A stretch of DNA of 62,507 nucleotides, counting the filler. It is 10 parts of 10 records of this genome, joined end to end, with 100 filler letters (N's around TTAATTAATTAA, not from the genome) between each part and the next. Parts side by side here need not be neighbours in the genome. Positions count along the whole stretch, not along the records: positions 39,043 to 45,204 come from SRR31147125_152907; 9 more parts are not named here. The stretch is one strand, 5' to 3'. Of this stretch, positions 7,669 through 57,355 are shown piece after piece. Numbering within the stretch: position 1 is the stretch's first letter; each line of letters opens with the position of its first letter. The notes beneath the pieces are model-generated. The model worked only from the letters and a program-made list of their open reading frames with translations, searched no databases and was not told the origin of the DNA. Both the position numbers and the translations under genes were made by a program.

Positions 7669-7768
7669 NNNNNNNNNNNNNNNNNNNNNNNNNNNNNNNN
7701 NNNNNNNNNNNNTTAATTAATTAANNNNNNNNNNNNNNNNNNNNNNNNNNNNNNNNNNNNNNNNNNNN
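7669..7768. other. Artificial contig spacer (N44-TTAATTAATTAA-N44)
   Basis: 100-nt N run with a six-frame stop cassette. Confidence 0.98.
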
Positions 7769-10135: not shown

Positions 10136-11314
10136 TTAGATCAAAGGGTCTTTGATCCCCATGGCTCCGGCACGCTCGACCCATAGTTTTCTGGCCAGAA
10201 TACGCATATCTTCTACGTGGTCGGTCTCATCGACGATCTCCATGCCGATGATGGTTTCGATCAAATCTTCCAGCGTCAGCAGACCTTCGGTGCCGCCATG
10301 CTCGTTGACGACAACGGCAATGTGGTGGCGATCCTTCAGGCATTGCTCAAACAGGGAGGTCACGGGTATGGATTCCGGAATAACAAGAATCTTCCGTTTT
10401 AAGATGCGAAGAGTATCTTCTGTTGAAAACTTTGAGTTGTCATTCAAGGAGTGTTCTTCAGATACCGGTATCTTGATTTGGTCGGTCCCTATTGTGTCTT
10501 GGATTTGGGGGGCGATACACTCTTGAGTCGAGTGGATCAACACCTCATCCTTGAGGACAAATCCGGTGATGGTATCCACGTTACGGGTATAAACGGGAAT
10601 GCGTGAAAAGGGGGTTCGGCTGATGATCGGCAAGGCATCTCTGATTTTCATCTTTTCGGGCAAAGCTGAAATCACCGTTCTCGGGGTCATGATATCCGAT
10701 GGTTTCAATGACTCGAATCGAAGAAGGTTTCTGATGATTTTCGACTCTTTACGGCGAAGCTGTCCGGTTTTGGCCCCCAGGGAGGCCATGGCGATCAGCT
10801 CGTCTCTGCTGGAATCGTTGGCAACCTTCCCACGGGAGATAAAAGCCGTCAGTTTTTCGGAAATCCTGACCACGGGATAGAGGATCACAATCAGCGATTG
10901 AACGAACAGCGCGGTTGGAACCACAAGGGTGGACCAGTAAACCGCACCAATGGTTTTGGGAACGATTTCCGAAAGAAAGAGGATCATCAGTGTCATAACA
11001 GCGGAAAAGAGGCCGAACCAGGCGCTGCCGAACACCACGACGGCTTTGGCGCCTGCACCGATGGCGCCCACAGTATGGGCAATGGTATTCAAGGTCAAAA
11101 TGGCGGCAAGGGAGTGATCCACTTTGTCGTTTTTCAGTTTGTGCAAAATCGCCGCACGATTTGGGTTTCGTTCCCTCAATCCTTCGATGTAAGAGGGCGT
11201 GATGCTTAGCAGAACCGCCTCAGCAACGGAACAGAGAAATGAACAGACCAGTGCCAGTAAAACATATGCGGTCAGCATCATCACGTCTTCGGGGGTGTAG
11301 GCCATCTCACTCAT
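10136..11314 (-). CDS. CNNM/HlyC/CorC family protein (DUF21 + CBS pair)
   Basis: SFLCSVAEAVLLS, ILTLNTIAHTVGA, SEIVPKTIG, IMTPR, FSRIPVY, TLEDLIE; start position uncertain. Confidence 0.92.
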   Translation of the reverse strand: MSEMAYTPEDVMMLTAYVLLALVCSFLCSVAEAVLLSITPSYIEGLRERNPNRAAILHKLKNDKVDHSLAAILTLNTIAHTVGAIGAGAKAVVVFGSAWFGLFSAVMTLMILFLSEIVPKTIGAVYWSTLVVPTALFVQSLIVILYPVVRISEKLTAFISRGKVANDSSRDELIAMASLGAKTGQLRRKESKIIRNLLRFESLKPSDIMTPRTVISALPEKMKIRDALPIISRTPFSRIPVYTRNVDTITGFVLKDEVLIHSTQECIAPQIQDTIGTDQIKIPVSEEHSLNDNSKFSTEDTLRILKRKILVIPESIPVTSLFEQCLKDRHHIAVVVNEHGGTEGLLTLEDLIETIIGMEIVDETDHVEDMRILARKLWVERAGAMGIKDPLI

Positions 11315-11551
11315 TTTCCGCCTTTCGCTTTCATCCGTGTTTGGCAATTCATTGAAAAAACGTACCGTGGAACCTTAAATTTACCATGGAAATAATACGG
11401 TAACTCAGATTTACAATGAATTCAAGGCTCTCCTGTCGGAAAATGGCGTTTATTTCAAGCGGACGGATACACCCCCCACCAACCTTGATGGATGAGGGGT
11501 GTGTATTGACAACGAAGTTGATTGAAAATGCCGGACTTCTTTTTCAAACGA

Positions 11552-12466
11552 TCATCGGCAATTGGAACCGGCCGAGCCGGCAGTGGGGATCCCCATTCCA
11601 TTGCATTGCGCCCCAATATTTTTTGGGTCTTGAGATTCCTTTGGTTGCCGTCCAACGCTTTTGAGAATCGCCTCGAGAACGCCGCCTGCGATGGCTCTCG
11701 ATTTATCCGAAATGGTATGGCAGTGCCCGACAACGCCGCGGGGATCGATATCCCCGATTTTCACTCCTGAATTGACAAAGGTACCGGGGGGGATCAGTCC
11801 TCTGACGATCCCCGGAATTTCAGCGTAAACCGTGTATCCGTTCACTCGTCCCACTACGGATCCGGCATCGACGACGGTACCGATGTCGATGTCTGAGGAG
11901 AAGTGCCCCTCACCCGGAGCTCTCAAGACCCTTTCCGAGGTAAATCCGCCAATTTTTCCGGGAATGCCCGTATTGGCTTCTGCACAGCCTTTTGTAATGA
12001 CTCTGCCTAAATGATGGCCGCGATTGGATTCAATGACCATATGGACACTCTCTCCGGCTTCGAATCCCGGACCGATTCCGATCACCAACGGGGCGTCTGC
12101 CATGGTGGTTCCCAGATTTTTTTTGGCAATGATCGCATCGATGACAACATCGGGGTTTATCGTTTTTATCGCTTGCCAGTCCGGATCGACGATCACGGCA
12201 ATTTTTTCGGATTCCCATATGGTTTCGATGGCGGAAATGCGTGTTGCCTTTTGAGCCCAAACCCCCTCCACCTCTTTTTCTTTTTGATAAATCACATCAC
12301 TGAATGCGACATTGCGTCGAACGGCCAAGGGGGTCGGCACTTCCATCATGAAAATGTTCCGGATATTGGATTGAAACAGACGCCAGGCAATGCCGGTGGC
12401 CTGTTCACCCGCCCCTTTGATTCCAACGACAAGATCAAACGGATTCATTTGTAAGTCCTCTGTCAT
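11552..12466 (-). CDS. yqeB: Selenium-dependent molybdenum hydroxylase system protein YqeB
   Basis: KGAGEQATG, AVRRNVAF, DAIIAKKNLGT, ESNRGHHLGR, KIGDIDPRG, ISDKSRAIAGGVLEA. Confidence 0.88.
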   Translation of the reverse strand: MTEDLQMNPFDLVVGIKGAGEQATGIAWRLFQSNIRNIFMMEVPTPLAVRRNVAFSDVIYQKEKEVEGVWAQKATRISAIETIWESEKIAVIVDPDWQAIKTINPDVVIDAIIAKKNLGTTMADAPLVIGIGPGFEAGESVHMVIESNRGHHLGRVITKGCAEANTGIPGKIGGFTSERVLRAPGEGHFSSDIDIGTVVDAGSVVGRVNGYTVYAEIPGIVRGLIPPGTFVNSGVKIGDIDPRGVVGHCHTISDKSRAIAGGVLEAILKSVGRQPKESQDPKNIGAQCNGMGIPTAGSAGSNCR

Positions 12467-12557
12467 TTAATACTTACGAAAAAAGGATTCCGTAAAATGG
12501 GTTGAGAAAAACGAATTTATTTTGCTTCAATACCATTGGGATTGATTGATTTTCCCG

Positions 12558-13427
12558 TTATGTTTCAAGCGTGGATACTCGCGTTTCAAATGATGATGTC
12601 GAGATCGTCTCTCCACCCACGGAAATGAGTGCCCCGTAAACATAATTGGATGTCACATAATTCTCGGCCCGAATTCGTGCCGATTCAAGGGCCAGCGCAA
12701 CGGTTGTTTCCTGCAACTGCCCCACCTGTACCGTGACAGGGATTCCTGGAATATCCGTTCCCGGATCCATGGTCTCCGCCGGCACTTGAACAATGGCATC
12801 ATCGTGAGCATAGCAGGCATTGGCAAGGGCCGTTGCCGCCGCATCGGCACGGGCGGAGCGATTGGCCGTCACCGTCACCCCCGAAGCGATCCCCCGGGTC
12901 AGACTCCGACCGCCGAGTCCGCTGGTGTTCACCCCCCAGGATGAATGACGGGCGTCGAGTATCATCATGTGGGTCATCTCAGGTCTGCGGATATCGGTAC
13001 GAATGCCCACTCGGGCCGTCTCGTCACCGGTTAGACGAATGCTGATATCGCCTCCGTTGTTGACGATCACACGGGTGACGTCCCGGGTAAAAAGCCGATC
13101 GGCCACGGCATCGGCAATGGCTCCGGCCACGGCAGCCATGGGCGTGAGATCCGGCTCATCCAGCAGTAGGACACTTTCAATCATTTCAACGGCTAAAAAA
13201 GCGCCTTTTTCTCTTAAAAGGGGCAGGGCGGATGGATTTCGAGCGGTCAGAAACGGCCGATAGGTCGCCACCTGTTCCAGGCATTCAAAAGCAAACTCGG
13301 CAGATTCCAGAAGGCGCTTCAGTGCCGGTCGATCTCCTTCCCATGCTTGAATGACAAGGCGCATCGGACCGTTTTCTGCCAAAACCGCCCTGCCGTCGTG
13401 TATGATTTCAATCCGCCTGTCACTCAT
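12558..13427 (-). CDS. UPF0280 family (ApbE-like) protein
   Basis: GPMRL, TPMAAVAG, VNNGGDI, TSGLGGRSLTRGIA, ADAAAT. Confidence 0.88.
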   Translation of the reverse strand: MSDRRIEIIHDGRAVLAENGPMRLVIQAWEGDRPALKRLLESAEFAFECLEQVATYRPFLTARNPSALPLLREKGAFLAVEMIESVLLLDEPDLTPMAAVAGAIADAVADRLFTRDVTRVIVNNGGDISIRLTGDETARVGIRTDIRRPEMTHMMILDARHSSWGVNTSGLGGRSLTRGIASGVTVTANRSARADAAATALANACYAHDDAIVQVPAETMDPGTDIPGIPVTVQVGQLQETTVALALESARIRAENYVTSNYVYGALISVGGETISTSSFETRVSTLET

Positions 13428-13500
13428 TTTCTACTCATCTTCCATGTCGCTTTCCATTGATTGAAGCGTTGTAAGTTAAGTTACTGTTTAGGAATGGCTT

Positions 13501-13913
13501 TTATATAAGTTGTCCGTTTTTGCGATTAGGGGATAGATTTTTTATTCTGTCTCCGCCCCCGAAATGGGAAAGCTGTTTTTGTGACCATTCCTTAGTCTTC
13601 TTTCTTAGTTGTCGTCGCCGCTGCGGGGGGACTGCTGCAAAGGGTTTCATCGCTTCCACATGCCCCCCCATATCGGCGTAATCCTGAACGGTCATGGTGT
13701 ACTCCAGAGGGCATATGGTGGCGGGGGTAGGGGTCCAGTAGAACGATCCCTGTTTCACCCGTGCCACATCCACCATGAAGGAAATGCCGCCTCCCGGCAG
13801 AATAAAACCGGGCGCTCCGCCCACAGTGAGGGAGACCTTGTTGTCGTGCACGGCTTTCGTCAATTTAATGGGATATCTGGTGACACCGGCCCGGGCACTT
13901 CCGCCGCTTCCCC
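13501..13913 (-). CDS. 6-hydroxynicotinate reductase-like protein, C-terminal fragment
   Basis: GGSARAGVT..P.KLT, TVGGAP..LPGGGISFMVDV, PTPA..PLEYT...GGH match the Hnr C-terminus as recalled; the true stop may be earlier. Confidence 0.72.
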
Positions 13914-14013
13914 NNNNNNNNNNNNNNNNNNNNNNNNNNNNNNNNNNNNNNNNNNNNTTAATTAATTAANNNNNNNNNNNNNNNNNNNNNNNNNNNNNNN
14001 NNNNNNNNNNNNN
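13914..14013. other. Artificial contig spacer
   Basis: N run with TTAATTAATTAA. Confidence 0.98.
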
Positions 14014-14455
14014 CCCCCATAGGGGGAGTTACCTTTCCACGGGCTGGGTCAGGAATCTTGTCCAAAAAATTATTTCTTTTCCGGTCCGGTTGATGAAAAA
14101 GAGTCAGTCCATTGCCCATGCGGCCTCAGAACTCGGGGTGGCTGGAGCGGAAAAGATTGGGTCTTCATTGACGAGCCTTGACAGCATGTCACCGGAGAAC
14201 AAGGGGCTTCTTGCCCTTGCGGATATTCCCCTTGCACCTGGAATTCAAGGCCATTCCATCATTCCCATTGATGGAGATGAAAATCCGCCTGAGGGGGATG
14301 ACGGCGTGGTCAAATATACAAGCGCCCATATCGACTATGCAGAATCTGAATTCATTGTCCGGGATGAACACTCATGCCAGTCAAATCCCCTTGTCATAGA
14401 GGAGGTACGGCGGATTCTTATTGACCATTTGAATCATGCAAAAATCAACGATTAA
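14014..14455 (+). CDS. Alpha/beta hydrolase (esterase/lipase), C-terminal fragment
   Basis: PHRGS at the contig start, DDGVVKYTSAH (acid residue), EHSCQ (catalytic His). Confidence 0.78.
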
Positions 14456-19479: not shown

Positions 19480-19579
19480 NNNNNNNNNNNNNNNNNNNNN
19501 NNNNNNNNNNNNNNNNNNNNNNNTTAATTAATTAANNNNNNNNNNNNNNNNNNNNNNNNNNNNNNNNNNNNNNNNNNNN
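19480..19579. other. Artificial contig spacer
   Basis: N run with TTAATTAATTAA. Confidence 0.98.
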
Positions 19580-24875: not shown

Positions 24876-24975
24876 NNNNNNNNNNNNNNNNNNNNNNNNN
24901 NNNNNNNNNNNNNNNNNNNTTAATTAATTAANNNNNNNNNNNNNNNNNNNNNNNNNNNNNNNNNNNNNNNNNNNN
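24876..24975. other. Artificial contig spacer
   Basis: N run with TTAATTAATTAA. Confidence 0.98.
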
Positions 24976-30210: not shown

Positions 30211-30310
30211 NNNNNNNNNNNNNNNNNNNNNNNNNNNNNNNNNNNNNNNNNNNNTTAATTAATTAANNNNNNNNNNNNNNNNNNNNNNNNNNNNNNNNNN
30301 NNNNNNNNNN
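30211..30310. other. Artificial contig spacer
   Basis: N run with TTAATTAATTAA. Confidence 0.98.
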
Positions 30311-38942: not shown

Positions 38943-39042
38943 NNNNNNNNNNNNNNNNNNNNNNNNNNNNNNNNNNNNNNNNNNNNTTAATTAATTAANN
39001 NNNNNNNNNNNNNNNNNNNNNNNNNNNNNNNNNNNNNNNNNN
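38943..39042. other. Artificial contig spacer
   Basis: N run with TTAATTAATTAA. Confidence 0.98.
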
Positions 39043-40000
39043 GAAGTTCGGCTTCTGCGGCCTTAATGCCTGCCTGATCGCCTTTTCTTTCGGCTTTTAG
39101 TTTTTTCTTGAATGCTTCAATCTGACGGACATCAAGCAGCTGAGCGTTTGAGGACGCGAGGAAGGGGCCCCATCCGTCCGAAGTGTTGGCCAGAATCTGA
39201 CGCTCACGTGCAACTTTCTCCACGCTACCAATTCGGCCGAACTGAATGAAGAAGTAGAGAATCTTTTGCTTCAACTCGTCTGAAAGATCAGCACGCCAGA
39301 CCATCGGATCAGAGGGGATCAGAGGTGAACGCCAGATCTCTTTGATTTTGCCGGCCATTTCCGGGTTGGTTTTCGGAATGCGGTCGTAAAGGGTTTCCGT
39401 ATTGTTGGTCGCGACATCGACTTTTTGGGTAGCGACGGCGATGGCATTGCCCTGGTGGTTGGAGCTGACGACACGCTTGAAGCACTCTTCAGGTGTCTTG
39501 TTGTTCAGAGCCCAGACGTAGTAGCCGGGAATGGCGAAACCGGAGGTTGAGTTTGGATCACCGTTGCCGAAGGTCTTGGTTCCGTCACACTTGAGAACAT
39601 CTTCGAGTGAGTTCAGGTCGGAATCTTTGTTGGCGATCAACAGGGAGTAGTAGCCTTTTGCTCCGTTATCCTTGATGGTCTGAGCAAAAACTTCGCCACC
39701 CGCGCGGTCAACAGCCTGGATAGCCGATTTATTGCCGAACCAGCCGAGGTCGACTTTCTTAAAGCGCATGCCTTCAATGACTCCGGCGTAGTCAGAAGCA
39801 AAAAACATTTTGACAGGGATGCCGAGAGACTTTTCCATCTCCTTGACAAAAGGTCCAAAACTTTCTTCCAGAGTGGTTTGGGATTCAGTCGCGATAATCC
39901 CGAAATTGAGTTGCTTCGGCATGTTGCCATGTCCAGAAGCGAAGGCGGTGCCACAGAGCATGGCCATGGCGATCAGGGTGAGCATCAATCTTTTCAGCAT
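39043..40000 (-). CDS. phnD: Phosphonate ABC transporter substrate-binding protein (C-terminus truncated)
   Basis: FGIIATES, DYAGVIEGMRF, GNKSA, GDPNSTSG, VDVATNN, SPLIPSDP. Confidence 0.92.
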
Positions 40001-40066
40001 GATTTTTCTCCTTTGGATGAAATAGCGATTCAATGAATGGTGCGATTCGTCTGTCTTTAAGACGAT

Positions 40067-40878
40067 TTATCCAACTTTCAGGATGGGAGCAGGGCGCTCA
40101 GCACCCAGCTGACAGCAGCCGTCCTCGACTCCGTAAAGTTCTACAAGGTCTTTTTCGCTGATTCCGGAGGCTTTGCCGTCGTAGACAACCCGACCATCTT
40201 TCAGAGCGATGATGCGGTCACAGCGGGTTGTCGCAACTTCGAACTGGTGAAGGGAGACGACAACGGTGGTGCCGTCCTGACGGTTGATGTCGCAAAGTAA
40301 ATTCATCACCCGGTCGGATGAGGCAGGGTCAAGTGAAGCAATCGGCTCATCGGCGAGAATAAGTTTCGCTTCCTGGGTCAGAGCCCTGGCGATGGCACCT
40401 CTCTGCTGTTGTCCCCCGGACAGGGTTGAAGCACGCTGGTGGGCGTACTCAACCATATTGACCCGCTCGAGTGCTTCAAGGGCTTTGATGCGTTCTTCGC
40501 GGGGAAAGAGTCTGATAACCCCTTTCCAGTAGGGATTATGGGCCAGGCGTCCGATCAGGACATTGGTCAGCAGTGAAAGGCGTCCGACGAGGTTGAACTG
40601 CTGGAAGATGACACCGATGTCGCGGCGCAATGCGCGATATTCAGGGGTCTGCTTATTGCCTAAATGAATGGCTCGAGAAAAAGCTTGAGGTGACGACTTG
40701 ACTTGTCCATGGTCTCAAGCCCGGAGATGGTGCGAATTAAAGTTGATTTGCCCGATCCGGAAGCGCCGATCAGCCCGACCATCTCGCCCTTTTCGATCGA
40801 AACGTTAATGTCGTTCAAAACCTGATTGTTTCCGAATGTCTTGTTTAAACCTGAGATTTCTATGACGGTTTCAGACAT
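40067..40878 (-). CDS. phnC: Phosphonate ABC transporter ATP-binding protein; apparent frameshift at 40678-40682
   Basis: GASGSGKST in the first [36 protein letters not shown] in the second. Confidence 0.92.
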
Positions 40879-40938
40879 GGATGGCTCCTTTCACAAAAAA
40901 CTGCATTGTTCAGCGACAGAAGCAGACTAAGGGGTCCT

Positions 40939-40977
40939 ATTTAGGTTTTGGTTAGCGGATGGTTATCGTTTGATGAA
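40939..40977 (-). promoter_or_regulatory. Candidate pho-box array (four hexamers at 11-bp spacing) upstream of phnC
   Basis: Minus strand TTCATC-n5-ATAACC-n5-CTAACC-n5-CTAAAT, about 60 nt before the phnC start. Confidence 0.5.
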
Positions 40978-41026
40978 TGGAGTCTAGACAACTTTAACTC
41001 GGGAAATCTGGGGTCAGGAAGGGGCG

Positions 41027-41530
41027 TTAAACATTCCGAGGGGTTTGATTCACTGGCTTCAGCCGTTTGAAACAGGGGCAGGACAATAGGTAAATACTTC
41101 CCAGCAGAAGTGGTGTGCTGAAGAGCCAGAGACACAATCCTAACAGATTGATGTGCCAGAAATTGCTCAGAAATAGTTCGGGGTTTTGAGTCACCAGATG
41201 CTTTAACTGGGAGAAATCGGCTGGCAGGTAGTTGGTGGACAGTAGTTTTTCCGCGCCTGCCAGGTAGGGAAGAAACAGGAGGAATTGGAGCGGGTAAACC
41301 AGATAGTTTGCCATCTGAACGGCAAGCTGGTTGAGTCTGAAAACAGTAGCCAGGGCGAAACAGATCAAACTGGTTCCCCAGACCAGCGGCATGACGCCGA
41401 TGGTTGCTCCGAGAGCACAGGCCAAAGCCAGCTCATGGGGTGATAACCCCTGGTTGAGCTGGCTTTGAAGAACCGCCACGGTTTTTCGGAATGGGTTCAG
41501 CCTGACCTTGCTGAAATCAGATGCGATCAC
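41027..41530 (-). CDS. DUF2062 family membrane protein
   Basis: QGLSPHELALACALG..IG.MP..G, RLN....Q.ANY..YP pattern. Confidence 0.72.
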   Translation of the reverse strand: MIASDFSKVRLNPFRKTVAVLQSQLNQGLSPHELALACALGATIGVMPLVWGTSLICFALATVFRLNQLAVQMANYLVYPLQFLLFLPYLAGAEKLLSTNYLPADFSQLKHLVTQNPELFLSNFWHINLLGLCLWLFSTPLLLGSIYLLSCPCFKRLKPVNQTPRNV

Positions 41531-42554
41531 GGTGAATATGAAAGCTCAAGTTGGCCCCAGTCACGGTGCTGCGACCGGTGTAAACGAACAGAACAATCCA
41601 GATCAGCTGAAGAAAAAGAAGTGTTCCGGGTTGCCACAACATCTGAAGGCCGAGGCTGATGTCGATGGCAGAGGCAACAGAAGTGCGATTGAGGTAGCTG
41701 AAAGCAAGGGCATAAGGGATAGCCAGAAGCCCCATGATCTGATACGCCGAGAACTTATTACTGCCGCGATAGTCGGCCCGTAAGAATTCGGAGAAAACAC
41801 GCCACAGCTGCGTCACCAGAAGGCTTAGAGCGAAAGCGGCCGCGGCCTGTCCGCTGAGGAATAGTTGAATTGAGATCAGACCGCTGACGACGTAGAGAAC
41901 GGCGGTCAAAGCCTGAATCGGAACAACCGGTTCCCCTTCCAGATTGTCGGCGTAGCAGATTTTTCTCGTCTCACCGTGAAAGGCAAAGTGCCAACGGGAG
42001 AAGAGTTGTCTAAGGGCCGGGCGGCAGCGAGAGACCGGTTTCCCGTAGCAGCAGCCAAAGCTGATGCAGGCCAGACGCCCCAGCCCTTCGCCGAAAGCAT
42101 AAGCGATGGCAATCGCTGCCAGGGTGGTCATGGTCGGCAAGTGGTAGCTGGTCGTTGTGTTGATCGCTTGAATGATCCATGGGGCAGCAATAATTCCGAC
42201 AAACACTGCACCGCCGACGGTAAATGTGTGTGCCTTACCTTCCACGATCCGGGCGACCAAGCGCGATGCCGGCACACAAAGTGCGAGCATGAGTACGGCC
42301 AGCAACATAACACCACCCACTGGGACCTGAGATGAGCCGAGAAGAATCAGCAGAATCGCCAGGGCAACCAGGTAGGCGTTCGCGGTCAGAAGGCCGTACC
42401 AGGTCAGGTTGATTCCCTGCCATTGACCGTTTCCGAGCGGCCGGATCGGCAGGGTTGCGAGCATTTGCCAGCCATCACGCGGAAGAATACGGAAACCCCA
42501 GTAAAACATCAGGGCACAGCAGACAGCCAATGTTAAAAGAAACAGTGTGTTCAT
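41517..42554 (-). CDS. Prolipoprotein diacylglyceryl transferase (Lgt)-like membrane protein, divergent
   Basis: WYG, GEGLGRLACISFGCCYG, P.Q, SEFLR, YQ motifs parallel the Lgt signature; multi-TM. Confidence 0.72.
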   Translation of the reverse strand: MNTLFLLTLAVCCALMFYWGFRILPRDGWQMLATLPIRPLGNGQWQGINLTWYGLLTANAYLVALAILLILLGSSQVPVGGVMLLAVLMLALCVPASRLVARIVEGKAHTFTVGGAVFVGIIAAPWIIQAINTTTSYHLPTMTTLAAIAIAYAFGEGLGRLACISFGCCYGKPVSRCRPALRQLFSRWHFAFHGETRKICYADNLEGEPVVPIQALTAVLYVVSGLISIQLFLSGQAAAAFALSLLVTQLWRVFSEFLRADYRGSNKFSAYQIMGLLAIPYALAFSYLNRTSVASAIDISLGLQMLWQPGTLLFLQLIWIVLFVYTGRSTVTGANLSFHIHRDRI

Positions 42555-43582
42555 TCGTTTGACTCCTTTTCAGGCTTCGGGAGCGCTGTCGCGATGAGAG
42601 ATCGAACCTGAATATCCGTTTCGACGAGAGGGAGGTTGAAGCCCGAGGTAAATCGGCTCTCAACATCTCTTCTCGTCCGATTTTCAAGCAGGTCATCGGC
42701 AAATCGGATGCGATTTTTTTCAAACAGCAATACGTCTGTGCTGCTACCCGGGCGGTAAAGGCTTTTGGGGCACCCTTTTTCGATAAACATACCGGTCCGG
42801 ATCGAGCGTGGGTTGTCGTAGCAGACCGGGCTGTAGCACTGAACGATATCGCCGATCATTAAAGCGACAATTTCAACCATGGCGACTATTCCAACCTGGC
42901 TGCCTCCGTCAACGTCGGTATCGATGATGGTGACGACGCGTCGATTTTTTGAGTAAGGGGTGGCTTCACTGATGATCGCCTGCGGGTTGCAGGAGTGATA
43001 GCTACCCTCGATCTGGTAGTGGTCAATGACACGCCCGGAGACCGGGGTGTGATTGAAATGATATTTGTCGGGGGTCAGGCGGAAGAGGGCAAAGTCCCCA
43101 CCAAGGAACGATTTGATCCAGCGGGATTTGTTTTGTCCGAGGAGCTCTTCGTAAGTAAAGAATTTGCCCTTGATCGAAAGGCTTGAGGTCTCGTCAAGGG
43201 AGCCGACAATGGCTCGCGCATCGGCTGGCGAAACAATGGCGTCCTCGGCGGCCGGCATGGGTCGACATTGCCAGTAACGGATCTTACGCTCAAAAACTTT
43301 ACGGGCCGTGTCGAGTTTTCGGGGAGGGTCAAGACATTCTTCAAGATTGACACCCGCTTCTTTCAAAAAACGCTGATTGCCGAGAACATGGGTCGAAAGT
43401 GCCAGGTCGTAGTTAAAAAAACCGAGCGCTTTTGTTGTGTGGGGACCGGTGATGAGGCGAAAGAGCAGCGGCGCATTTTCGCGGATCGGGTGGTAGAGCC
43501 AGCGAATAATACGATCCCCAAAAAGGGGTTCGTTACAGACCTGTCTGCTGCTGCGGTGAATGTATTGATGCATTGTCGTCAT
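42551..43582 (-). CDS. Phosphatidylserine decarboxylase-family pyruvoyl enzyme
   Basis: SPAD, FRLTPDKYHFNH.P, KNRR, self-cleavage motif PGSST. Confidence 0.85.
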   Translation of the reverse strand: MTTMHQYIHRSSRQVCNEPLFGDRIIRWLYHPIRENAPLLFRLITGPHTTKALGFFNYDLALSTHVLGNQRFLKEAGVNLEECLDPPRKLDTARKVFERKIRYWQCRPMPAAEDAIVSPADARAIVGSLDETSSLSIKGKFFTYEELLGQNKSRWIKSFLGGDFALFRLTPDKYHFNHTPVSGRVIDHYQIEGSYHSCNPQAIISEATPYSKNRRVVTIIDTDVDGGSQVGIVAMVEIVALMIGDIVQCYSPVCYDNPRSIRTGMFIEKGCPKSLYRPGSSTDVLLFEKNRIRFADDLLENRTRRDVESRFTSGFNLPLVETDIQVRSLIATALPKPEKESNE

Positions 43583-45204
43583 AGATTGTTCCGTATTGGT
43601 TAAAGGCCTGCTCGGATATCTGTCTGTCGCGTTCTTCAGCCAGAATCATCAGGTTGAGAAGCCGCTTCAGGGGTTGAATGCCTGCCTGATCGTTGAGCAG
43701 GTCCGGTTCAATTGAAGCCCGGTAAGATTCAAGGTTCTTGTCTGCCAGAATCTCTGCAAGTTGAGGGCGCAATTCTTTGTCAATCTGAGTCTCTCCGCGT
43801 CCGAGTTGTTGGAGGTCATCCCACAGGAGAGACAACGACTGCTGTATATGCTCTTTGCGCAGATGAATCCGATAATAATGCTCTGCCTGGGAATTGAATT
43901 CACCTGCGTCCATGCGTCTGGAATCAGATGATTTTTTCCCGCTGATATTGTGAATCAGGTGAGCCGCCGCCGTGTATTTTTGGGGCTGTTCGATCTTCAG
44001 CTCCAGATCCTTGATAAGAGATTCGAAACCGAACATTTCAATAAGGTCAGCGGCATCTTCTTTGAGTATTTGAACCAGTGCTTTGCAATATTCATCTTTG
44101 TAGATTCTCAAATAGCCGGGATAGCGGCGGCTGGTTCTGATCCTGTCGGTTTTTTTGATGATCTTCAGTAGAAAACGGTTCCGCGTGTTCCGTTTGACAA
44201 AAAAGGTCGGGATGCCGATGGCCATGCCAAAAAAGACCTGTCTCCGTTCACTCTCGACAAAGGGGGTGTCCGGAATGTGCCGATGACGCACTTTGCCCGT
44301 GGCCATGTATTTGAACGCCAGAGCTGTCAGCAGAACCTGGAGATTTGTTGCCGCGCTAAGATCGTCAACCAGGTTTGGAAAGAGGCTGTGAAACCGGCCT
44401 TCAAAACCGCTGAAGCCCATTTCGCTGAAGCTTCGTATTTTGAAAAATTGATACAGAGACATCTGACGATCAAAAACGCCCATGTCGGTCAGGTCGTCCT
44501 TCAGCTGGTCCTGATTGCCGAGCTGGCCGTTATAAGCAGGACTTTGATCAGTGCTGAGAAAGCAGACCGGGTAATCGATGAGGCGAAAGTCAGGGACCAG
44601 ATCGCCGTGGAGGTGGAACGATTTCCGCAAGCCTCGATCGATCCAGTGAGGGCCAAAAGGAGTCAAGGCATGACCGAAGACCGACAGACTCGCTTTCTTT
44701 TTCCAGCGCCGCCAGAGCATGCGTAAATGGGTGAAGTCGAGCTGATGTGGAAGAAATCCGAGGGCTTTCTCCGGATGGAAATCTTCGAACGGAAGCCGAT
44801 ATGGGGCCGCGCTGTAGGTCGTCACAAACAGCGGCAGAAAGTGTTCCACGATTTTTGTCGTGAGGTCACCGAGAAACTTTTCATGGGCCGGATTGTAGCC
44901 ATTCAGCTGTTCTTTACAGGCCTGTGTCAATCTGTGGCTGCCCAGGCTGATATGAACACCATTGTTTGCCAGACTGGTATTCGACATATTAGGCAGAACA
45001 ACCAGGTTGTTGACGATGATACCCGCCTCCCGCAGCTTGGCAACGGCGTTCAACTGACTGCGACTCAAAACCTGATGACAGAGTTCCATGTAGGTATGCT
45101 TTTGTTCGCCACGGTCCCAACCCGACAGACAGGGGCTCATAAACAGCTGTCGATAAAAAGTGTCCGGTATCAGATCGTTGAGCTTTTTCTGTTGGAGAGG
45201 CGGG
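43533..45204 (-). CDS. Large conserved hypothetical protein, C-terminal part (possible carboxylate-amine ligase fold)
   Basis: More than 535 aa open to the contig end; SLANNGVHISLG and GFEGRFHS motifs. Confidence 0.7.
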
Positions 45205-45304
45205 NNNNNNNNNNNNNNNNNNNNNNNNNNNNNNNNNNNNNNNNNNNNTTAATTAATTAANNNNNNNNNNNNNNNNNNNNNNNNNNNNNNNNNNNNNNNN
45301 NNNN
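45205..45304. other. Artificial contig spacer
   Basis: N run with TTAATTAATTAA. Confidence 0.98.
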
Positions 45305-45799
45305 GATTTGAAGCTGCCCGACGGAGACGGGATGGAGGTCGTCAAGACGGTGAAAGAGGAAAAACCGGAAACCGAAGTCGTCATCATCACCGGATACGCG
45401 TCGGTCAACTCAGCGGTAGACGCCATGAAGATCGGCGTATTCGACTATCTCACCAAGCCGTTTATTGAAGACGAGATCAAAGAGGCGGTGGATGGTGCCC
45501 TGCGGAAAATCAGGGAAGAGGAGGTGGACAGACTTCACAACAGGGTTGCCGCGCAGGAAAGCAGGCTGATCCAGAAGCAGCAGTTAATGGCGGTCCTCGA
45601 CCGCACTGCCGAAGACAGCGAATTCTGGCACTACCTCATGGAAGACGGTGCGGAGGCCCTGCAGGAATATAACCTCTCCAATGAGGCCAAGGCGGCGATC
45701 ATCTCCGGCGACCTCGGCTGGATAAACCGCAACGTAGGTGAGCTGACCCAGAAACAGCTCATGTTCATCCAGGGAAGATTGGAAAGTGAGGTCTGGTAG
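45305..45799 (+). CDS. Response regulator (REC), N-terminally truncated, with a small non-HTH C-terminal domain
   Basis: DLKLPDGDG, IITGY, DYLTKPF. Confidence 0.88.
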   Translation, partial: DLKLPDGDGMEVVKTVKEEKPETEVVIITGYASVNSAVDAMKIGVFDYLTKPFIEDEIKEAVDGALRKIREEEVDRLHNRVAAQESRLIQKQQLMAVLDRTAEDSEFWHYLMEDGAEALQEYNLSNEAKAAIISGDLGWINRNVGELTQKQLMFIQGRLESEVW

Positions 45800-45904
45800 C
45801 CGCCATGACAGGCGGCCCGGAGAGACCGGCACAGCAGGTACAGTATGGCAAAACCGGCCTGCGCGAAAGCGGCCGGCATTCAGAAAGAACGGAGCCAACC
45901 GGTA

Positions 45905-48900
45905 ATGAAGAAGAGTGAGACGAACGCAAAGCTACGTGCTGCAGTCGCAGTCGTCGGCGGCGGTATCACCGGCATGCAGGCCGCCCTCGATATGGCCGAC
46001 GCCGGGTTTTTCGTGTACATCATCGAAAAATCCCCCGCTATCGGCGGCGTGATGGCACAACTGGACAAAACCTTCCCCACCAATGACTGCGCGATGTGAA
46101 TTATCTCGCCGAAACTGGTCGAGGTCGGCCGGCATAACAATATCGAGTTGATTACGCTCTCGGAGATCGAGGACGTCTCCGGTGAAGAAGGTGATTTCTC
46201 CGTGAACCTGAGCCAGGCGCCCCGCTATGTCGATACCGACAAGTGTATCGCCTGCGGGATCTGCGCGGAAAAGTGTCCCAAAAAGGTTGATGACGAATAC
46301 AACGAGGGACTGGCCAAACGGAAAGCCATTTACGTCCCGTACGCCCAGGCGGTTCCGCTCAAGTACGCGATCGATCCCGACAACTGCATCTTCCTGCAGA
46401 AAGGCAAATGCGGTGCCTGCGAGAAGTTCTGTCCGTCCGGGGCCATTAATTTTAATGATACCGGGAAGAGGCGAACCATTGAGGTTGGTTCCATCATCCT
46501 TGCCACCGGGTTTCAGTCCTACGACCCGTCGGGACTGGACAACTACCTCTATGCAAACAACCCGGACGTGGTCACCGCCGTTGAATTCGAGAGAATGCTC
46601 TCCGCTACCGGTCCCTACGGTGGACACCTGGTCCGCCCCTCGAGCAGGCTGAAAAAAGGCGACCCCGATCTTCCGGTAAAGAGGATCGCCTGGCTCCAGT
46701 GCGTGGGGTCGCGGGAAAAAAACCGCTGCACGAACGAATACTGCTCCTCGGTCTGCTGCATGTACGCGGTCAAGCAGGCGATCATCGCGAAGGAGCACGA
46801 CACGTCCGTCGACTGTTCAATCTTCTACATGGACATGCGCACCCAGGGCAAGAACTTCGACCACTACCTGGAGAGCGCCCGCGAAAAAGGGATCTCTTTC
46901 ATCCCGACGAAGATTCACACCGTCGAAGAGGACCGGGCCGCGAACAAGCTGCTGCTGCGCTATATGACCGACACCAGCAAATTGCTGCTTGACGACATCG
47001 ACCTCGTCGTCCTCTCCACCGGCCTCGAGATCCCGCAGGGCGTGCGGGACCTGGCCGACCGTCTCGATGTCCGGCTGGACAACAACTCCTTCATCGCAAC
47101 CGACTCATTCCACCCGGTCTCCACCTCGGTTCCCGGCATATACGGGTGCGGGGTGATCACCGGACCGAAGGACATCCCGCAATCCGTGATGGAGGCGAGC
47201 GCCGCAGCCTGCGCCGCCACCGAGAAGCTGGCATCCGCCCGCAACAGCCTGATTACGTGCCCGGAGTCCGTGCCCGAACTCGATATCGCCCGGCAGAAAC
47301 CGCGGATCGGGGTCTTTGTCTGCAACTGCGGCTCCAATATCGGCGGCGTCGTCAGGGTCCCCGACGTGGCGGACTATGCCCGGACCCTGCCGAACGTCGT
47401 CTATGTGGAGGAAAACCTGTTCACCTGTTCCCAGGACACCCAGGACAAGATGGCCCAAGTGATCCGCGAACAAGGCCTCAACCGGGTGGTAATCGCGGCC
47501 TGCACCCCGATAACCCATGAACTTCTGTTCCAGGAAACCCTTGCCGCCGCCGGGCTGAATAAATACCTGGTCGAGATGGCCAATATCAGGAATCACGACT
47601 CGTGGGTCCATGCGAACGACCCGGATGCAGCCACGGAAAAAGCCATCGACCTGGTGCGGATGGCCGTAGCCAAGTCCTCCCTGCTCGAGCCGCTCTACCA
47701 GAGCGAGTTGCCGATCGCCAGATCTGCGCTGGTGGTCGGCGGCGGTATCGCCGGGATGATCGCCGCCCTCTCGCTCTCCACCCACGGTTACCCGGTAACC
47801 CTGGTGGAGAAGTCGGAGGTGCTGGGCGGTCAGGCCAGGAACCTCCACCGAGCGGCGAAACTCGAAGAGGTGACCCCCTTTGCCAGAGAGCTTGAAAAAC
47901 AGGTGGCCGACACTGATACCATAACCGTCTTCACCGGTGCCACGGTTACAGATGTAAAAGGTTTTGTCGGCAACTTCGAAACGGAGGTTACCGACGCAGC
48001 CGGGCCGAAGACCGTGGAGCATGGAGTCGCCGTCATCGCCACCGGCGCGGAAGAGTACAAACCGGACGAATACCTGTACGGGGACCACCCCGCGGTCGTC
48101 ACTCACCTGGAGATGGACGAACTCCTCAAAAACAACGACGGAAAAGTGACCGGGGCAGAGACGGTCGCATTTATCCAGTGCGTCGGTTCCCGCAACGAGA
48201 CCAATCCTTACTGCTCGAAGGTGTGCTGCACGCACACGATCATCAGTGCCCTCGAACTCAAGGAGAAGAACCCGGACATGGCCGTGGTGGTGCTGTATAG
48301 AGATATCCGCACTTACGGCACCCGGGAGCTCCTCTACCATAAGGCCCGAGAGCAGGGCGTTTTGTTCTTCCGCTACGCCCCGGAGAAAAAACCGGTCGTC
48401 AGCGAGGCGGGAGAGTGCGTACGGATCGAGTTTGACGACCCGATCATCGGGCGCGGGGTTGCGGTGGAGGCGGACCTGCTCTGCCTGGCGACCGCTATAG
48501 TTCCCAGGAAAGACCGTTCCCTGTCCGGCTTCTTCAAGGTGCCGCACGACGGGGACGGCTGGCTCCTCGAAGCGCATCAGAAGCTGCGGCCGGTGGATTT
48601 CGCCACGGAGGGGGTCTTTCTCTGCGGTATGGCACACTACCCCAAACCCATCGACGAAAGCGTGGCCCAGGCCAAGGCCGCCGCCTCACGGGCGCTGAGT
48701 GTCCTCACCCGACCAGCGATCCAGGTGGGCGGCATGGTGCCGAGAATAGACGAGCGGCTCTGCTGCGGCTGCCTGGCCTGTCTGGGCGTCTGCTCCTTCG
48801 GGGCTATCAGCTTCAACGCGGAAAAAGGCGTGGCCCAGGTCAACGAGGCGCTCTGCAAGGGCTGCGGTGCCTGCGCCGCCGCCTGTCCATCGGAGGCCCC

Positions 48901-48973
48901 GGCCTTGAAGGGGTTTGAAAACAAACAGATTTACGCTCAGATCGAAGGGGCGCTGCAAGAGCTGAAAAATTAA
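45905..48973 (+). CDS. hdrA: Heterodisulfide reductase subunit A-like flavoprotein (double FAD module, ~1020 aa), selenoprotein
   Basis: GGGITG...[15 protein letters not shown](46097-46099)-IISPKL continues in frame; two QCVGSR motifs and several CxxCxxC ferredoxin motifs. Confidence 0.92.
46115..46132 (+). promoter_or_regulatory. Candidate SECIS hairpin of hdrA
   Basis: CUGGUCG-AGGU-CGGCCGG stem-loop starting 15 nt after UGA. Confidence 0.6.
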
Positions 48974-48983
48974 GGAGTTTACC

Positions 48984-49496
48984 GTGTCGACAAAACAATT
49001 TGAACCGAAGATTCTCGCCTTTTTCTGCAGCTGGTGCGCCTACGGGGCGGCTGACCTCGCCGGCGTCAACCGGATGGAGCATCCCCCGAATACCAGGGTC
49101 ATCCGGGTCATGTGCTCGACCACCGTCAGCCCGCACCACGTTCTGAGGGCCTTCCAGAGCGGTGTGGACGGTGTGCTGGTGGGCGGATGACACGTCGGCG
49201 ACTGCCATTACCTGTACGGTAATTACATGACCATTAAACGAATCACCTTCCTCCAGGAGCTGCTCACATTTATCGGGCTGGAGGAACGACTCCACCTGTC
49301 CTGGATCTCTTCTGCCGAGGCCGGCAAATTCATCGACGTCGTCAGCGACTTTACCGAAAAGATCAGGAGCATCGGGCCCAACCCGCTGAAAGGATTCAAG
49401 CTTGAGCCGTGGCTGAAACAGATGGATAGCGTCCACCCCGTTCCCGCCTCAACCGGGCTGGAAAGCGGCACGGAAACGTCCGTCGTCGTCAAATAA
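48984..49496 (+). CDS. mvhD: MvhD/FlxD-type hydrogenase iron-sulfur (delta) subunit, selenoprotein
   Basis: [30 protein letters not shown](49188-49190)-HVGDCHY in frame. Confidence 0.92.
49207..49223 (+). promoter_or_regulatory. Candidate SECIS hairpin of mvhD
   Basis: AUUACC-UGUAC-GGUAAU perfect stem 16 nt after UGA. Confidence 0.6.
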
Positions 49497-49506
49497 CGGA
49501 GACGAA

Positions 49507-50334
49507 ATGAAAGAAATAACGCACATCAGGCAAACGATCAGGCAGTGGCTGGAAAACGGGACCGTCGACATTTTCCTGGGCTACCGCGAACGTGAAGGAC
49601 ACGCAATACCGCACGGGTTCACCCTGGAAAACATCGACGAGGTGGAGTCCATGGTGGATTCAGAGTCCCGCTATGCCCTGGAGAAGCTCGCGACCAAGAT
49701 TCACCGGCGGCGACCGGACAAGATCATCGGCATGGTCGCCAGGGAATGCACCCGGAGGGCACTCAACGTATTAACTGTCTGGAATCAGCTCGACGCGGAC
49801 ACAGTGAAGACGATCACGCTCAACTGCTGCCCATCGCCACTGAAAGACCATGCTGCCTGTTCCTACCTGGAACCGGAGAAAGCCGGTACGGGCAAACTCC
49901 AGTTCGGCCTGGACCCCAACGGCGACATCGAGGAGGCAGGGGCTGCACCGAAGAATGAGCGGCTGTCACGCTGGATGTATGAGATGCAGAAATGCATCAA
50001 ATGCTACGGCTGCCGTAATATATGCCCCGTCTGCTTTTGCAAAGAATGCAGCCTCGAACACACCGACCTGGTTCATGCAGGAAAGCTGCCGGCCGAGGTG
50101 CCCATTTTCCACCTGGTCCGGGCAACTCATATGGCCGGACGCTGCATCGACTGCGGCCTGTGCGAGGAGGCCTGTCCGATGGACATCCCGCTCCGCCTGT
50201 TGTACCGCAAGGTCAACGCTATCGTCAGCGAGGTCTTCGCATACGATACGGGCACCAGCGGCGACCAGCCGCCCTTCAGTGTTTTAGGGGACACGGTGAC
50301 CCTGGAACCGAAGCCTATCCGCCAGGAAGCATGA
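49507..50334 (+). CDS. 4Fe-4S dicluster protein (FdhB C-terminal-like subunit of Hdr/Fdh clusters)
   Basis: CIKCYGCRNICPVCFCKEC, FHLVRA.HMAGRCIDCGLCEEACP. Confidence 0.85.
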   Translation: MKEITHIRQTIRQWLENGTVDIFLGYREREGHAIPHGFTLENIDEVESMVDSESRYALEKLATKIHRRRPDKIIGMVARECTRRALNVLTVWNQLDADTVKTITLNCCPSPLKDHAACSYLEPEKAGTGKLQFGLDPNGDIEEAGAAPKNERLSRWMYEMQKCIKCYGCRNICPVCFCKECSLEHTDLVHAGKLPAEVPIFHLVRATHMAGRCIDCGLCEEACPMDIPLRLLYRKVNAIVSEVFAYDTGTSGDQPPFSVLGDTVTLEPKPIRQEA

Positions 50335-50363
50335 GAAGAAGTTTAAGAGGACAAAACCACATC

Positions 50364-50818
50364 ATGGAAAATTCAATGAACTGCAAACTCGTTCCTTCCG
50401 TCTGCTCCTATTGCGGCACAGGCTGCGGTGTGCTGTTCGAGGTACTCGACGGCGAACTCGTCGGGACCCAGCCGTTAAAGTCCCACCCGGTCAACCACGG
50501 AAAGCTGTGCATCAAAGGATGGAACCTGCACGAACATATCAACAGCTCCATGCGACTGAAAGCCCCGCTTGTCCGGGAAAACGGCAACCTCCGGAAAACC
50601 AACTGGAACGAGGCTCTCCGCACAACGGTGGACGCCTTCAAAAACACCGTTGCACAATATGGTCCGGAAAGTGTCGGGGTACTGGTTTCCGCAAAGGTGA
50701 CCAACGAAGAGAACTACCTGGCCCAGAAATTCGCCCGGGCAGCTATCGGCACCAACAACATCGACCACTGCGCCCGTCTCTGACATTCCTCCACCGTGGC
50801 CGGTCTGGCCGCAGCATT
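50364..50818 (+). CDS. fdhF: Formate dehydrogenase alpha subunit (FdhF-type), selenoprotein, N-terminal fragment
   Basis: CSYCGTGC, GKLCIKG, NEENY, NNIDHCARL-TGA(50781-50783)-HSSTVAGL. Confidence 0.92.
50796..50812 (+). promoter_or_regulatory. Candidate SECIS hairpin of fdh
   Basis: GUGGCC-GGUCU-GGCCGC stem-loop 12 nt after UGA. Confidence 0.65.
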
Positions 50819-50918
50819 NNNNNNNNNNNNNNNNNNNNNNNNNNNNNNNNNNNNNNNNNNNNTTAATTAATTAANNNNNNNNNNNNNNNNNNNNNNNNNN
50901 NNNNNNNNNNNNNNNNNN
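50819..50918. other. Artificial contig spacer
   Basis: N run with TTAATTAATTAA. Confidence 0.98.
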
Positions 50919-57255: not shown

Positions 57256-57355
57256 NNNNNNNNNNNNNNNNNNNNNNNNNNNNNNNNNNNNNNNNNNNNT
57301 TAATTAATTAANNNNNNNNNNNNNNNNNNNNNNNNNNNNNNNNNNNNNNNNNNNN
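57256..57355. other. Artificial contig spacer
   Basis: N run with TTAATTAATTAA. Confidence 0.98.

Follow-up and report, generated by a model that had tools for sequence, protein, structure and literature searches.

A conserved trio of ligase, decarboxylase and Lgt-like genes as a candidate pathway for a phosphorus-free thioether aminolipid

Gene organization of the cassette

Here we describe a row of genes encoding a large ligase-like protein, a paralogue of phosphatidylserine decarboxylase (PSD), a divergent member of the Lgt family of membrane transferases and a DUF2062 membrane protein. The row lies in a window (the whole stretch of DNA that was analyzed) of 62.5 kb, which is composed of ten short contigs joined by nine spacers, each of the form N44-TTAATTAATTAA-N44 (Table 1). 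The window is therefore not contiguous, and gene neighborhoods across spacers are meaningless. The contig that carries the cassette spans 39043..45204, and every gene on it is encoded on the minus strand.

An earlier reading of the window, made from sequence only, had reported four co-oriented, overlapping genes. These open reading frames (ORFs) are real and overlap by 50 bases (ligase and PSD-like genes), 4 bases (PSD-like and Lgt-like genes, at ATGA) and 14 bases (Lgt-like and DUF2062 genes), and the observation holds with corrected boundaries. The ORF assigned to the large gene at 43533-45204 is present, with the correction that 45204 is the end of the contig and not the start of the gene. 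Because the frame is open to 45204 and relatives are mostly about 800-830 aa long, the N-terminal approximately 260 residues of the ligase are missing from the window, together with its promoter. At its other end the row continues beyond 41027, where phnC and phnD directly follow the cassette on the same strand after a gap of 148 bases, in which no terminator-like site was found. Scans for terminators, for promoters and against Rfam gave nothing beyond chance in the contig. The two halves of phnC are in different frames, the N-terminal 72 codons at 40660..40878 and the C-terminal 187 codons at 40067..40630, and the latter part matches TIGR02315 (E 6.1e-66, profile positions 77-243); the split reflects either a pseudogene or an assembly error. 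The phnD product scores 301.7 bits with TIGR03431 versus a cut-off of 261.1, and matches PF12974 with E 7.8e-65.

Table 1. Features of the window and of recurrent neighboring genes at related loci (L numbers)
Feature	Position	Strand	Remarks
Predicted GCL/GS-fold ligase "BIG", C-terminal 556 codons	43533..45204	-	called ORF 43533..45140, frame open to contig end
PSD-family pyruvoyl decarboxylase paralogue, 343 aa	42551..43582	-	PF02666
Divergent Lgt-family membrane transferase, 345 aa, nine predicted helices	41517..42554	-	PF01790
DUF2062 membrane protein, 167 aa	41027..41530	-	PF09835
CTnAC-type direct-repeat array, 11-base period, upstream of phnC	40923..40955	-	candidate PhoB-type box
phnC, phosphonate ABC transporter ATPase	40067..40878	-	one frameshift; TIGR02315
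phnD, phosphonate-binding protein	39043..40033	-	3' end cut by contig start; TIGR03431, PF12974
Spacers, first five	7669-7768, 13914-14013, 19480-19579, 24876-24975, 30211-30310		
Spacers, last four	38943-39042, 45205-45304, 50819-50918, 57256-57355		
GT4 proteins, 806-912 aa	L001:2260-4680, L002:2054-4504, L026:12166-14889		long unannotated N-terminal half
GT4 proteins, 806-912 aa	L038:13120-15858, L046:2479-4941		
Zinc-finger ORFs	L007:10678-11079, L026:11714-12169, L029:5071-5487		DksA/TraR-type
Zinc-finger ORFs	L033:11770-12186, L049:11767-12183, L039:6651-7142		DksA/TraR-type

The large protein is predicted to be a carboxylate-amine ligase

Profile searches with the large protein returned no Pfam and no NCBIfam family at E values up to 0.01, the glutamate-cysteine ligase (GCL) families GshA and GCS2 included. 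Among the candidates scored, 3148 proteins are related to it with E values no higher than 0.001, and clustering at 50% identity leaves 436 representatives; the Protein Atlas returned only unnamed clusters of the same family. None of the 120 relatives listed carries a Pfam domain. Most of these 120 are of the length given above, shorter rows include pieces of 510-655 aa, and the closest among them, P0001 (817 aa), is 79% identical to the window protein. The sequence of P0001 contains no membrane segment. Desulfuromonas acetoxidans, Desulfuromusa kysingii, Geobacter pickeringii and Geomesophilobacter sediminis are among the named isolates in which relatives of the ligase were listed.

The fold was judged on an AlphaFold2 model of full-length P0001 built from 36 family members (pLDDT 91.5, pTM 0.93). 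In a Foldseek search of this model against the PDB, the best ten matches, whose E values range from 0.004 to 0.035, are without exception GCL (GshA) or GshF. In VIA-align the top 19 rows are all GCL, YbdK, PafA, Dop or glutamine synthetase (GS) structures, with Z scores between 15.6 and 5.7; the row that follows is unrelated and reaches a Z score of only 3.9. The best rows are GshF (3ln7_B, Z 15.6) and GshA (1v4g_A, Z 15.2, 418 residues aligned); YbdK (1tt4_A) was matched with Z 14.8 over 338 of its 354 residues, and PafA and Dop with Z 13.4 and 13.3, respectively. A fold of the GCL and Pup-ligase type, which the sequence-only reading had proposed, is thus what both structural comparisons of the model return. 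The match covers residues 18-796 of P0001, and the whole protein would therefore form one expanded ligase domain, of which the window copy lacks the first strands. Judging from the modeled fold, we are confident that the large protein is a carboxylate-amine ligase of roughly 815 aa with a GCL/GS fold.

The proposal had been based on the motifs NNGVHISLG and GFEGRF. Both are found in the 556 residues that can be read, at positions 80 and 266, with the family-invariant His of NNGVH and the Glu and Arg of GFEGR, and they are the second and third of three GshA-like motifs. In the 36 family members H346, E530 and R532 are invariant, and E49 and E51 are nearly so. The family motifs E49xE51, GVH346 and E530xR532 mirror E27xE29, GVH150 and E328xR330 of Escherichia coli GshA in the same order; all three are positioned on predicted strands in P0001, and ExE falls in the part that is missing from the window. 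In the available excerpts of PMC12817896, E27, E29, E67, H150 and E328 are listed as Mg- and glutamate-site residues of GshA. The common fold links the family to GshA, GshF and YbdK, and more widely to PafA, Dop and GS, and ExE, GVH and ExR follow the order of GshA. By comparison with GshA (518 aa), the family is longer, at about 815 aa, contains large insertions and gives no profile or hhalign signal. Unlike the genes of the GCL enzymes, the ligase gene is accompanied by PSD and Lgt paralogues; its substrates are predicted.

The PSD paralogue retains the pyruvoyl machinery

The PSD-like protein matches PF02666 with E 6.1e-37 (127.7 bits versus a gathering score of 22) and is below every NCBIfam PSD equivalog cut-off (best 139.6 versus 371 bits). 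It aligns with the beta chain of E. coli PSD (7cnw). All 23 family members compared have D121 of a PAD motif, H175 and H178 of YHxxH and the processing site G279-S280-S281; these residues align with E. coli PSD, and presumably each of them corresponds to a specific residue there. The paralogue and the E. coli enzyme (7CNW/6L06) align over the beta chain and share the G-S site and the Asp, His and Ser residues of autoprocessing; the paralogue differs by an N-terminal extension of about 95 residues. Since the pyruvoyl machinery is intact and invariant, the paralogue is expected to be a working pyruvoyl decarboxylase. Pyruvoyl enzymes of the PSD kind require a free amine beside the carboxyl that is removed. 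The presumed substrate of the paralogue is a glutamyl or cysteinyl lipid, and not phosphatidylserine (PS). As the sequence-only reading had noted, there is no pssA beside the gene: we found no CDP-alcohol transferase near the cassette.

The Lgt paralogue has a reversed charge bias

The Lgt-like protein matches PF01790 with E 1.6e-11 (44.4 bits versus a gathering score of 24.9). An AlphaFold2 model of the window protein (pLDDT 89.7) has a single strong fold match, E. coli Lgt (5azc_A; Z 13.7, rmsd 3.7, 231 of 284 residues aligned), and the next row is at Z 5.8. Neither phmmer nor the profile of the Lgt-like family reached 5AZC among the PDB sequences. An hhalign comparison with E. coli Lgt was weak (probability 1.5), and we used it for the register of motifs only, backed by Pfam and the fold. 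In this register E. coli R143, G154, R239, E243 and R246 are matched by R160, G171, R252, E256 and R259. The four charged residues among them are the same in all 22 members compared, and the positions of G142 and G154 are invariant as well. According to the available part of Mao et al. (PMC4728403), R143, R239, E243 and R246 are essential in E. coli Lgt, and H103, N146 and E151 are essential or bind phosphatidylglycerol (PG). The sequence-only reading had called the protein atypical; H103, N146 and E151 are all replaced, and the TIGR00544 score is 32.3 bits, far below the cut-off of 118.9. By comparison with the Lgt signature G142RLGNFINGELWG154 and H103, the G-R pair and the last G are retained, and N146, E151 and H103 are changed.

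Nine helices are predicted for the paralogue, with one extra hydrophobic helix at each end relative to the seven of E. coli Lgt. The mean number of Lys and Arg residues is 20.6 on the side of the arm, the head and the catalytic residues versus 1.7 on the opposite side, with equal sign in 22 of 22 sequences. In E. coli Lgt, by contrast, Lys and Arg cluster on short cytoplasmic loops, and the head, which is periplasmic, is acidic. The reversed charge bias suggests, by the positive-inside rule, that the active side of the paralogue faces the cytoplasm, and its head and active side are apparently cytoplasmic. The paralogue thus shares with E. coli Lgt (5AZC, PF01790) the fold and G142-R143, G154, R239, E243 and R246, and probably also the chemistry, a thioether between glyceryl C3 and a cysteine thiol; it differs in its charge bias, its nine helices and three key residues. 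Its presumed acceptor is a small molecule rather than a lipobox protein.

A conventional explanation would be that the two genes are the housekeeping psd and lgt, lying together by chance. Both proteins score above the Pfam gathering thresholds, as housekeeping copies would, and both are below every NCBIfam equivalog cut-off. We checked five genomes that carry related cassettes, and a separate canonical psd (approximately 215 aa) and a separate canonical lgt are present in all five, the latter scoring 190-284 bits versus 24-44 bits for the cassette copy. A gene for a CDP-alcohol phosphatidyltransferase (pssA) lies directly beside the canonical psd in four of the five genomes. For these relatives, the cassette genes are not the only copies of the host, and their identity with ordinary psd and lgt is refuted. 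Together with the replacement of essential Lgt residues, these findings make the housekeeping explanation exceedingly improbable.

Three genes form the conserved core of the cassette

A single scan of species-representative genomes yielded 52 related loci, of which 40 have at least 2.2 kb of downstream DNA. In 39 of these 40 the ligase, PSD-like and Lgt-like genes are consecutive and in this order, an arrangement that is far beyond chance. The co-occurrence of four genes that the sequence-only reading had envisaged thus applies to three of them; a DUF2062 homologue follows the cassette in only 3 of the 52 loci, the closest ones (L001-L003), and is therefore not part of the core. The DUF2062 protein of the window (PF09835, E 3.5e-9, 37.2 bits versus a cut-off of 27.4) is a lineage-specific accessory add-on. 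Elsewhere the fourth position is empty or occupied by other small genes.

Judging by record titles, the carriers belong to several phyla and include Desulfuromonadales, Syntrophaceae/Smithella, Desulfobacterales, Desulfocapsa and Desulfomicrobium/Desulfovibrio, as well as Victivallales, Leptospirales and Bryobacterales. In one order, 401 genomes were sampled and 100 of them contained the ligase gene, which indicates an accessory trait.

The conservation of the trio bears on the possibility that ligase and decarboxylase make a soluble thiol or polyamine-like metabolite, with the Lgt-like and DUF2062 proteins serving in transport or being mere passengers. GCL-fold enzymes mostly make soluble peptides, and the ligase itself has no membrane segment. 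However, 39 of 40 loci retain the Lgt-like gene, which is translationally coupled and encodes an invariant catalytic network, and the best-known members of the PSD family act on membrane lipids. We thus consider a soluble product to be very unlikely.

Several loci carry, within or next to the cassette, a small ORF that encodes a C4 zinc-finger protein of the DksA/TraR type (Table 1). In Smithella-type loci this ORF separates the PSD-like from the Lgt-like gene, in Desulfotignum it follows the Lgt-like gene, and in Desulfamplus it precedes the ligase gene. Two relatives, L024 and L039, have a decayed cassette. In L039, a locus that contains N runs, the Lgt-like gene is cut to 206 aa (10930-11550), and a gene for an IS66-family transposase (12347-14014) is present approximately 0.8 kb further downstream.

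Phosphate-starvation genes and repeat arrays adjoin the cassette

Neighbors within 4.5 kb of the cassette were scanned in 30 of 37 usable loci; L025, L030, L033, L035, L037, L045 and L049 were left out as near-duplicates, as were the downstream ORFs of L047. Genes for Pst, Phn, PhoH, PhoU, alkaline phosphatase or phosphodiesterase adjoin the cassette in 10 of the 30 loci. At two further loci, genes for a putative OmpR-type regulator and/or a histidine kinase are directly upstream. Large GT4 proteins are encoded near the cassette in five loci (Table 1) and may be glycolipid synthases of the same regulon. L007 carries an acyltransferase-GNAT gene, and L014 carries a DUF3419 gene with a methyltransferase gene; we take the former to be OlsF-like and the DUF3419 protein to be BtaA-like. 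Neighbors with a role in cysteine or glutamate metabolism comprise a hexapeptide transferase (L026, L038), an NAD-dependent glutamate dehydrogenase (NAD-GDH; L003) and a glutaminase (L039). In L001 (12417-14651) the DUF2062 gene is followed by genes for a cysteine-synthase-like PALP protein and a pyridoxal-phosphate enzyme of the Cys_Met_Meta_PP family, and then by a pstS-like gene, an arrangement in keeping with a demand for cysteine.

Two types of candidate PhoB-type repeats were observed upstream of the ligase gene. Strong boxes, in which TGTCA recurs three times every 11 bases with no fewer than 12 of the 15 positions matching, are present in 8 of 46 regions versus 8 of 1743 control windows, at a period of 11 only. 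In addition, CTnAC arrays, also with a period of 11, precede the ligase gene in the nearest relatives (L001-L004). L001 has two such arrays before pstS, both L001 and L002 carry the array before the GT4 gene, and phnC is preceded by it in L002 and in the window. From these neighbors and arrays, the cassette is probably switched on by phosphate starvation.

The neighbors also bear on the possibility that the trio modifies a protein or peptide, with a PafA- or Dop-like ligase acting on a side chain and the Lgt paralogue lipidating a cysteine on the cytoplasmic side. PafA and Dop are among the fold matches of the ligase, canonical Lgt acts on proteins (PMC4728403, available part), and the small zinc-finger ORFs recur in or beside the cassette. 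Nevertheless, GCL and YbdK outscore PafA, the scanned loci have no conserved substrate gene in common beside the trio, PSD-family enzymes require a free alpha-amino acid group, and the neighbors are phosphate-starvation and lipid genes. A role in protein modification is thus improbable.

Replacement of phospholipids is a major microbial strategy under phosphate scarcity. It is the logic of the known Pho-controlled, phosphorus-free lipid routes under phosphate limitation as presented in the available part of PMC5193443, a study of Desulfovibrio alaskensis G20 under phosphate limitation, and the genes of the trio are not mentioned in that part. The cassette shares this physiological logic with the routes of OlsBA/OlsF to ornithine lipid, of BtaAB to betaine lipid and of the Agt/GT4 synthases to glycolipids, and genes that resemble theirs lie near it in several loci. 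By contrast, its enzyme families are entirely different, as would be its product with a thioether-linked, dipeptide-like head group. Moreover, the cassette may convert PG directly, unlike routes that start from diacylglycerol (DAG) or acyl-ACP.

A candidate route to BACys lipids

The replacement lipids of anaerobic sulfate and metal reducers were chemically described only in 2024, without assigned genes. Ding et al. (PNAS 2024, PMC11181052) reported BACys ("N-butyramide cysteine glycerol") lipids from Desulfatibacillum alkenivorans. In the available text of that report, phospholipids of phosphate-starved cells are replaced by glucuronosyl lipids and BACys, the latter rising from <1% to approximately 65% of lipids, and no genes are assigned to BACys lipids. 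Our literature searches returned no paper that assigns genes to BACys lipids or describes the trio. BACys is a chemical finding without genes and with a tentative structure.

The substrates, product and regulation that we infer for the trio would combine as follows. At the expense of ATP, the soluble GCL-fold ligase would couple glutamate, through its gamma-carboxyl, with the cysteine amino group, a step suggested by the GCL fold and the three shared motifs. The Lgt paralogue would move diradylglyceryl from PG to the thiol, with glycerol phosphate released inside the cell, as suggested by the retained Arg/Arg/Glu/Arg network and the charge bias. These two steps could occur in either order. The PSD paralogue would then strip the alpha-carboxyl of the glutamyl moiety to yield S-(diradylglyceryl)-N-(4-aminobutanoyl)cysteine, for which the intact pyruvoyl machinery argues. 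Ligase and decarboxylase would both act on the cytoplasmic side, as would the active side of the Lgt paralogue.

The formula of the predicted product agrees with the reported head group and with the reported intact lipid. The head-group ion of BACys, at m/z 205.064, is C7H13O3N2S+, and BACys-DAG 35:0 is C45H87O7N2S+, according to the available parts of PMC11181052 and its supplement sd01. By our own arithmetic, the latter equals DAG 35:0 plus (4-aminobutanoyl)cysteine, C7H14N2O3S, minus water plus H+. This match is a consistency check and not proof. The response of BACys to phosphate starvation likewise fits the neighbors and boxes of the cassette.

The line of amide ligation, decarboxylation and lipid transfer toward an aminolipid that the sequence-only reading had suggested is therefore supported, still by inference, and it now has a concrete candidate product. 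We judge the case to be evenly balanced for a three-enzyme pathway on the cytoplasmic side that responds to phosphate starvation and yields a thioether aminolipid free of phosphorus and of the BACys type. Our confidence is higher that the trio constitutes a new pathway for a membrane-lipid head group in general. More specifically, the cassette could be the missing BACys route, in which a cytoplasm-facing Lgt paralogue swaps the glycerol phosphate of PG for a thiol derived from gamma-glutamyl-cysteine; this we put forward tentatively, leaning slightly against it.

Alternatively, the same three chemistries could build a lipid head group other than that of BACys, from other amino-acid or thiol substrates or from a donor lipid other than PG. 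In one variant, lipid-bound cysteine would be decarboxylated, as PS is to phosphatidylethanolamine, and the amide ligation would follow to give a gamma-glutamyl-cysteamine lipid. The evidence from folds, residues and synteny fits such a lipid equally, S-diacylglyceryl-cysteine would be chemically PS-like, gamma-glutamyl-cysteamine is also C7H14N2O3S by our arithmetic, and both H103 and the PG-selecting E151 are replaced in the Lgt paralogue. On the other hand, the authors read the fragment spectra (MS2) as intact cysteine plus butyramide (PMC11181052, available text). No other orphan lipid with a matching formula is known to us. We consider a product other than BACys to be possible, although unlikely.

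Several observations weigh against the proposed BACys pathway at its different levels. The published structure of BACys is itself tentative and based on MS2 (PMC11181052, available text). The link between BACys and the cassette is one of formula match and chemical logic, and isomers would match just as well, such as gamma-glutamyl-cysteamine or a compound with an ester in place of the thioether. In the Lgt paralogue, V119 takes the place of E. coli H103, and C163 and C168, both invariant, take the places of N146 and E151; these replacements may indicate a different donor or chemistry. The inverted topology of the paralogue is a prediction from the charge rule. For the ligase, comparing the family with E. 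coli GshA by hhalign showed no signal (probability 0.1), and the family profile found a single chance match (E 1.9) among the PDB chains; the equivalence of GshA residues derives from motif likeness and not from superposition, and it covers the Mg/glutamate site.

Other observations concern regulation. No phosphate-starvation neighbors and no canonical box were found in 16 of the 30 loci, and the eight strong TGTCA boxes represent some three lineages. For CTnAC, the pattern was chosen post hoc, and its loose form has 34 matches in 120 kb versus approximately 44 expected; 14 of these 34 lie in nine short upstream regions, so it is only the placement of the arrays that is striking, and not their frequency. 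As to the genes, L024 is the sole exception to the order of the trio, with an Lgt-like gene that ends after approximately 20 codons (10340-10400), and in the window the ligase gene is truncated, its promoter absent and phnC frameshifted.

If the proposed BACys pathway is correct, the Lgt family would extend from protein lipidation to bulk lipid synthesis, with its membrane orientation reversed, and the paralogue would be the first enzyme of this family whose product is a bulk membrane lipid and not a lipoprotein. Phosphorus of the membrane would be recovered internally while the thioether-linked replacement lipid is built. A large unannotated branch of >3000 database proteins without a Pfam family would join the GCL fold, and the cassette would provide a gene marker for the substitution of sulfur for phosphorus in the lipids of anoxic sediments. 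The cassette gives three concrete genes, which makes the lipid question directly testable.

Further observations

The next contig of the window (45305-50818) is unrelated to the cassette. It encodes a fragment of a response regulator, a 941-aa HdrA-like flavoprotein with many Fe-S motifs and more Cys-rich ORFs. At locus L009, from a metagenome-assembled genome of the Syntrophaceae, an ORF of 299 aa (8133-9032) matches the Pfam family of Phikzvirus chimallin, the shell protein of the phage nucleus, with E 1.5e-22.

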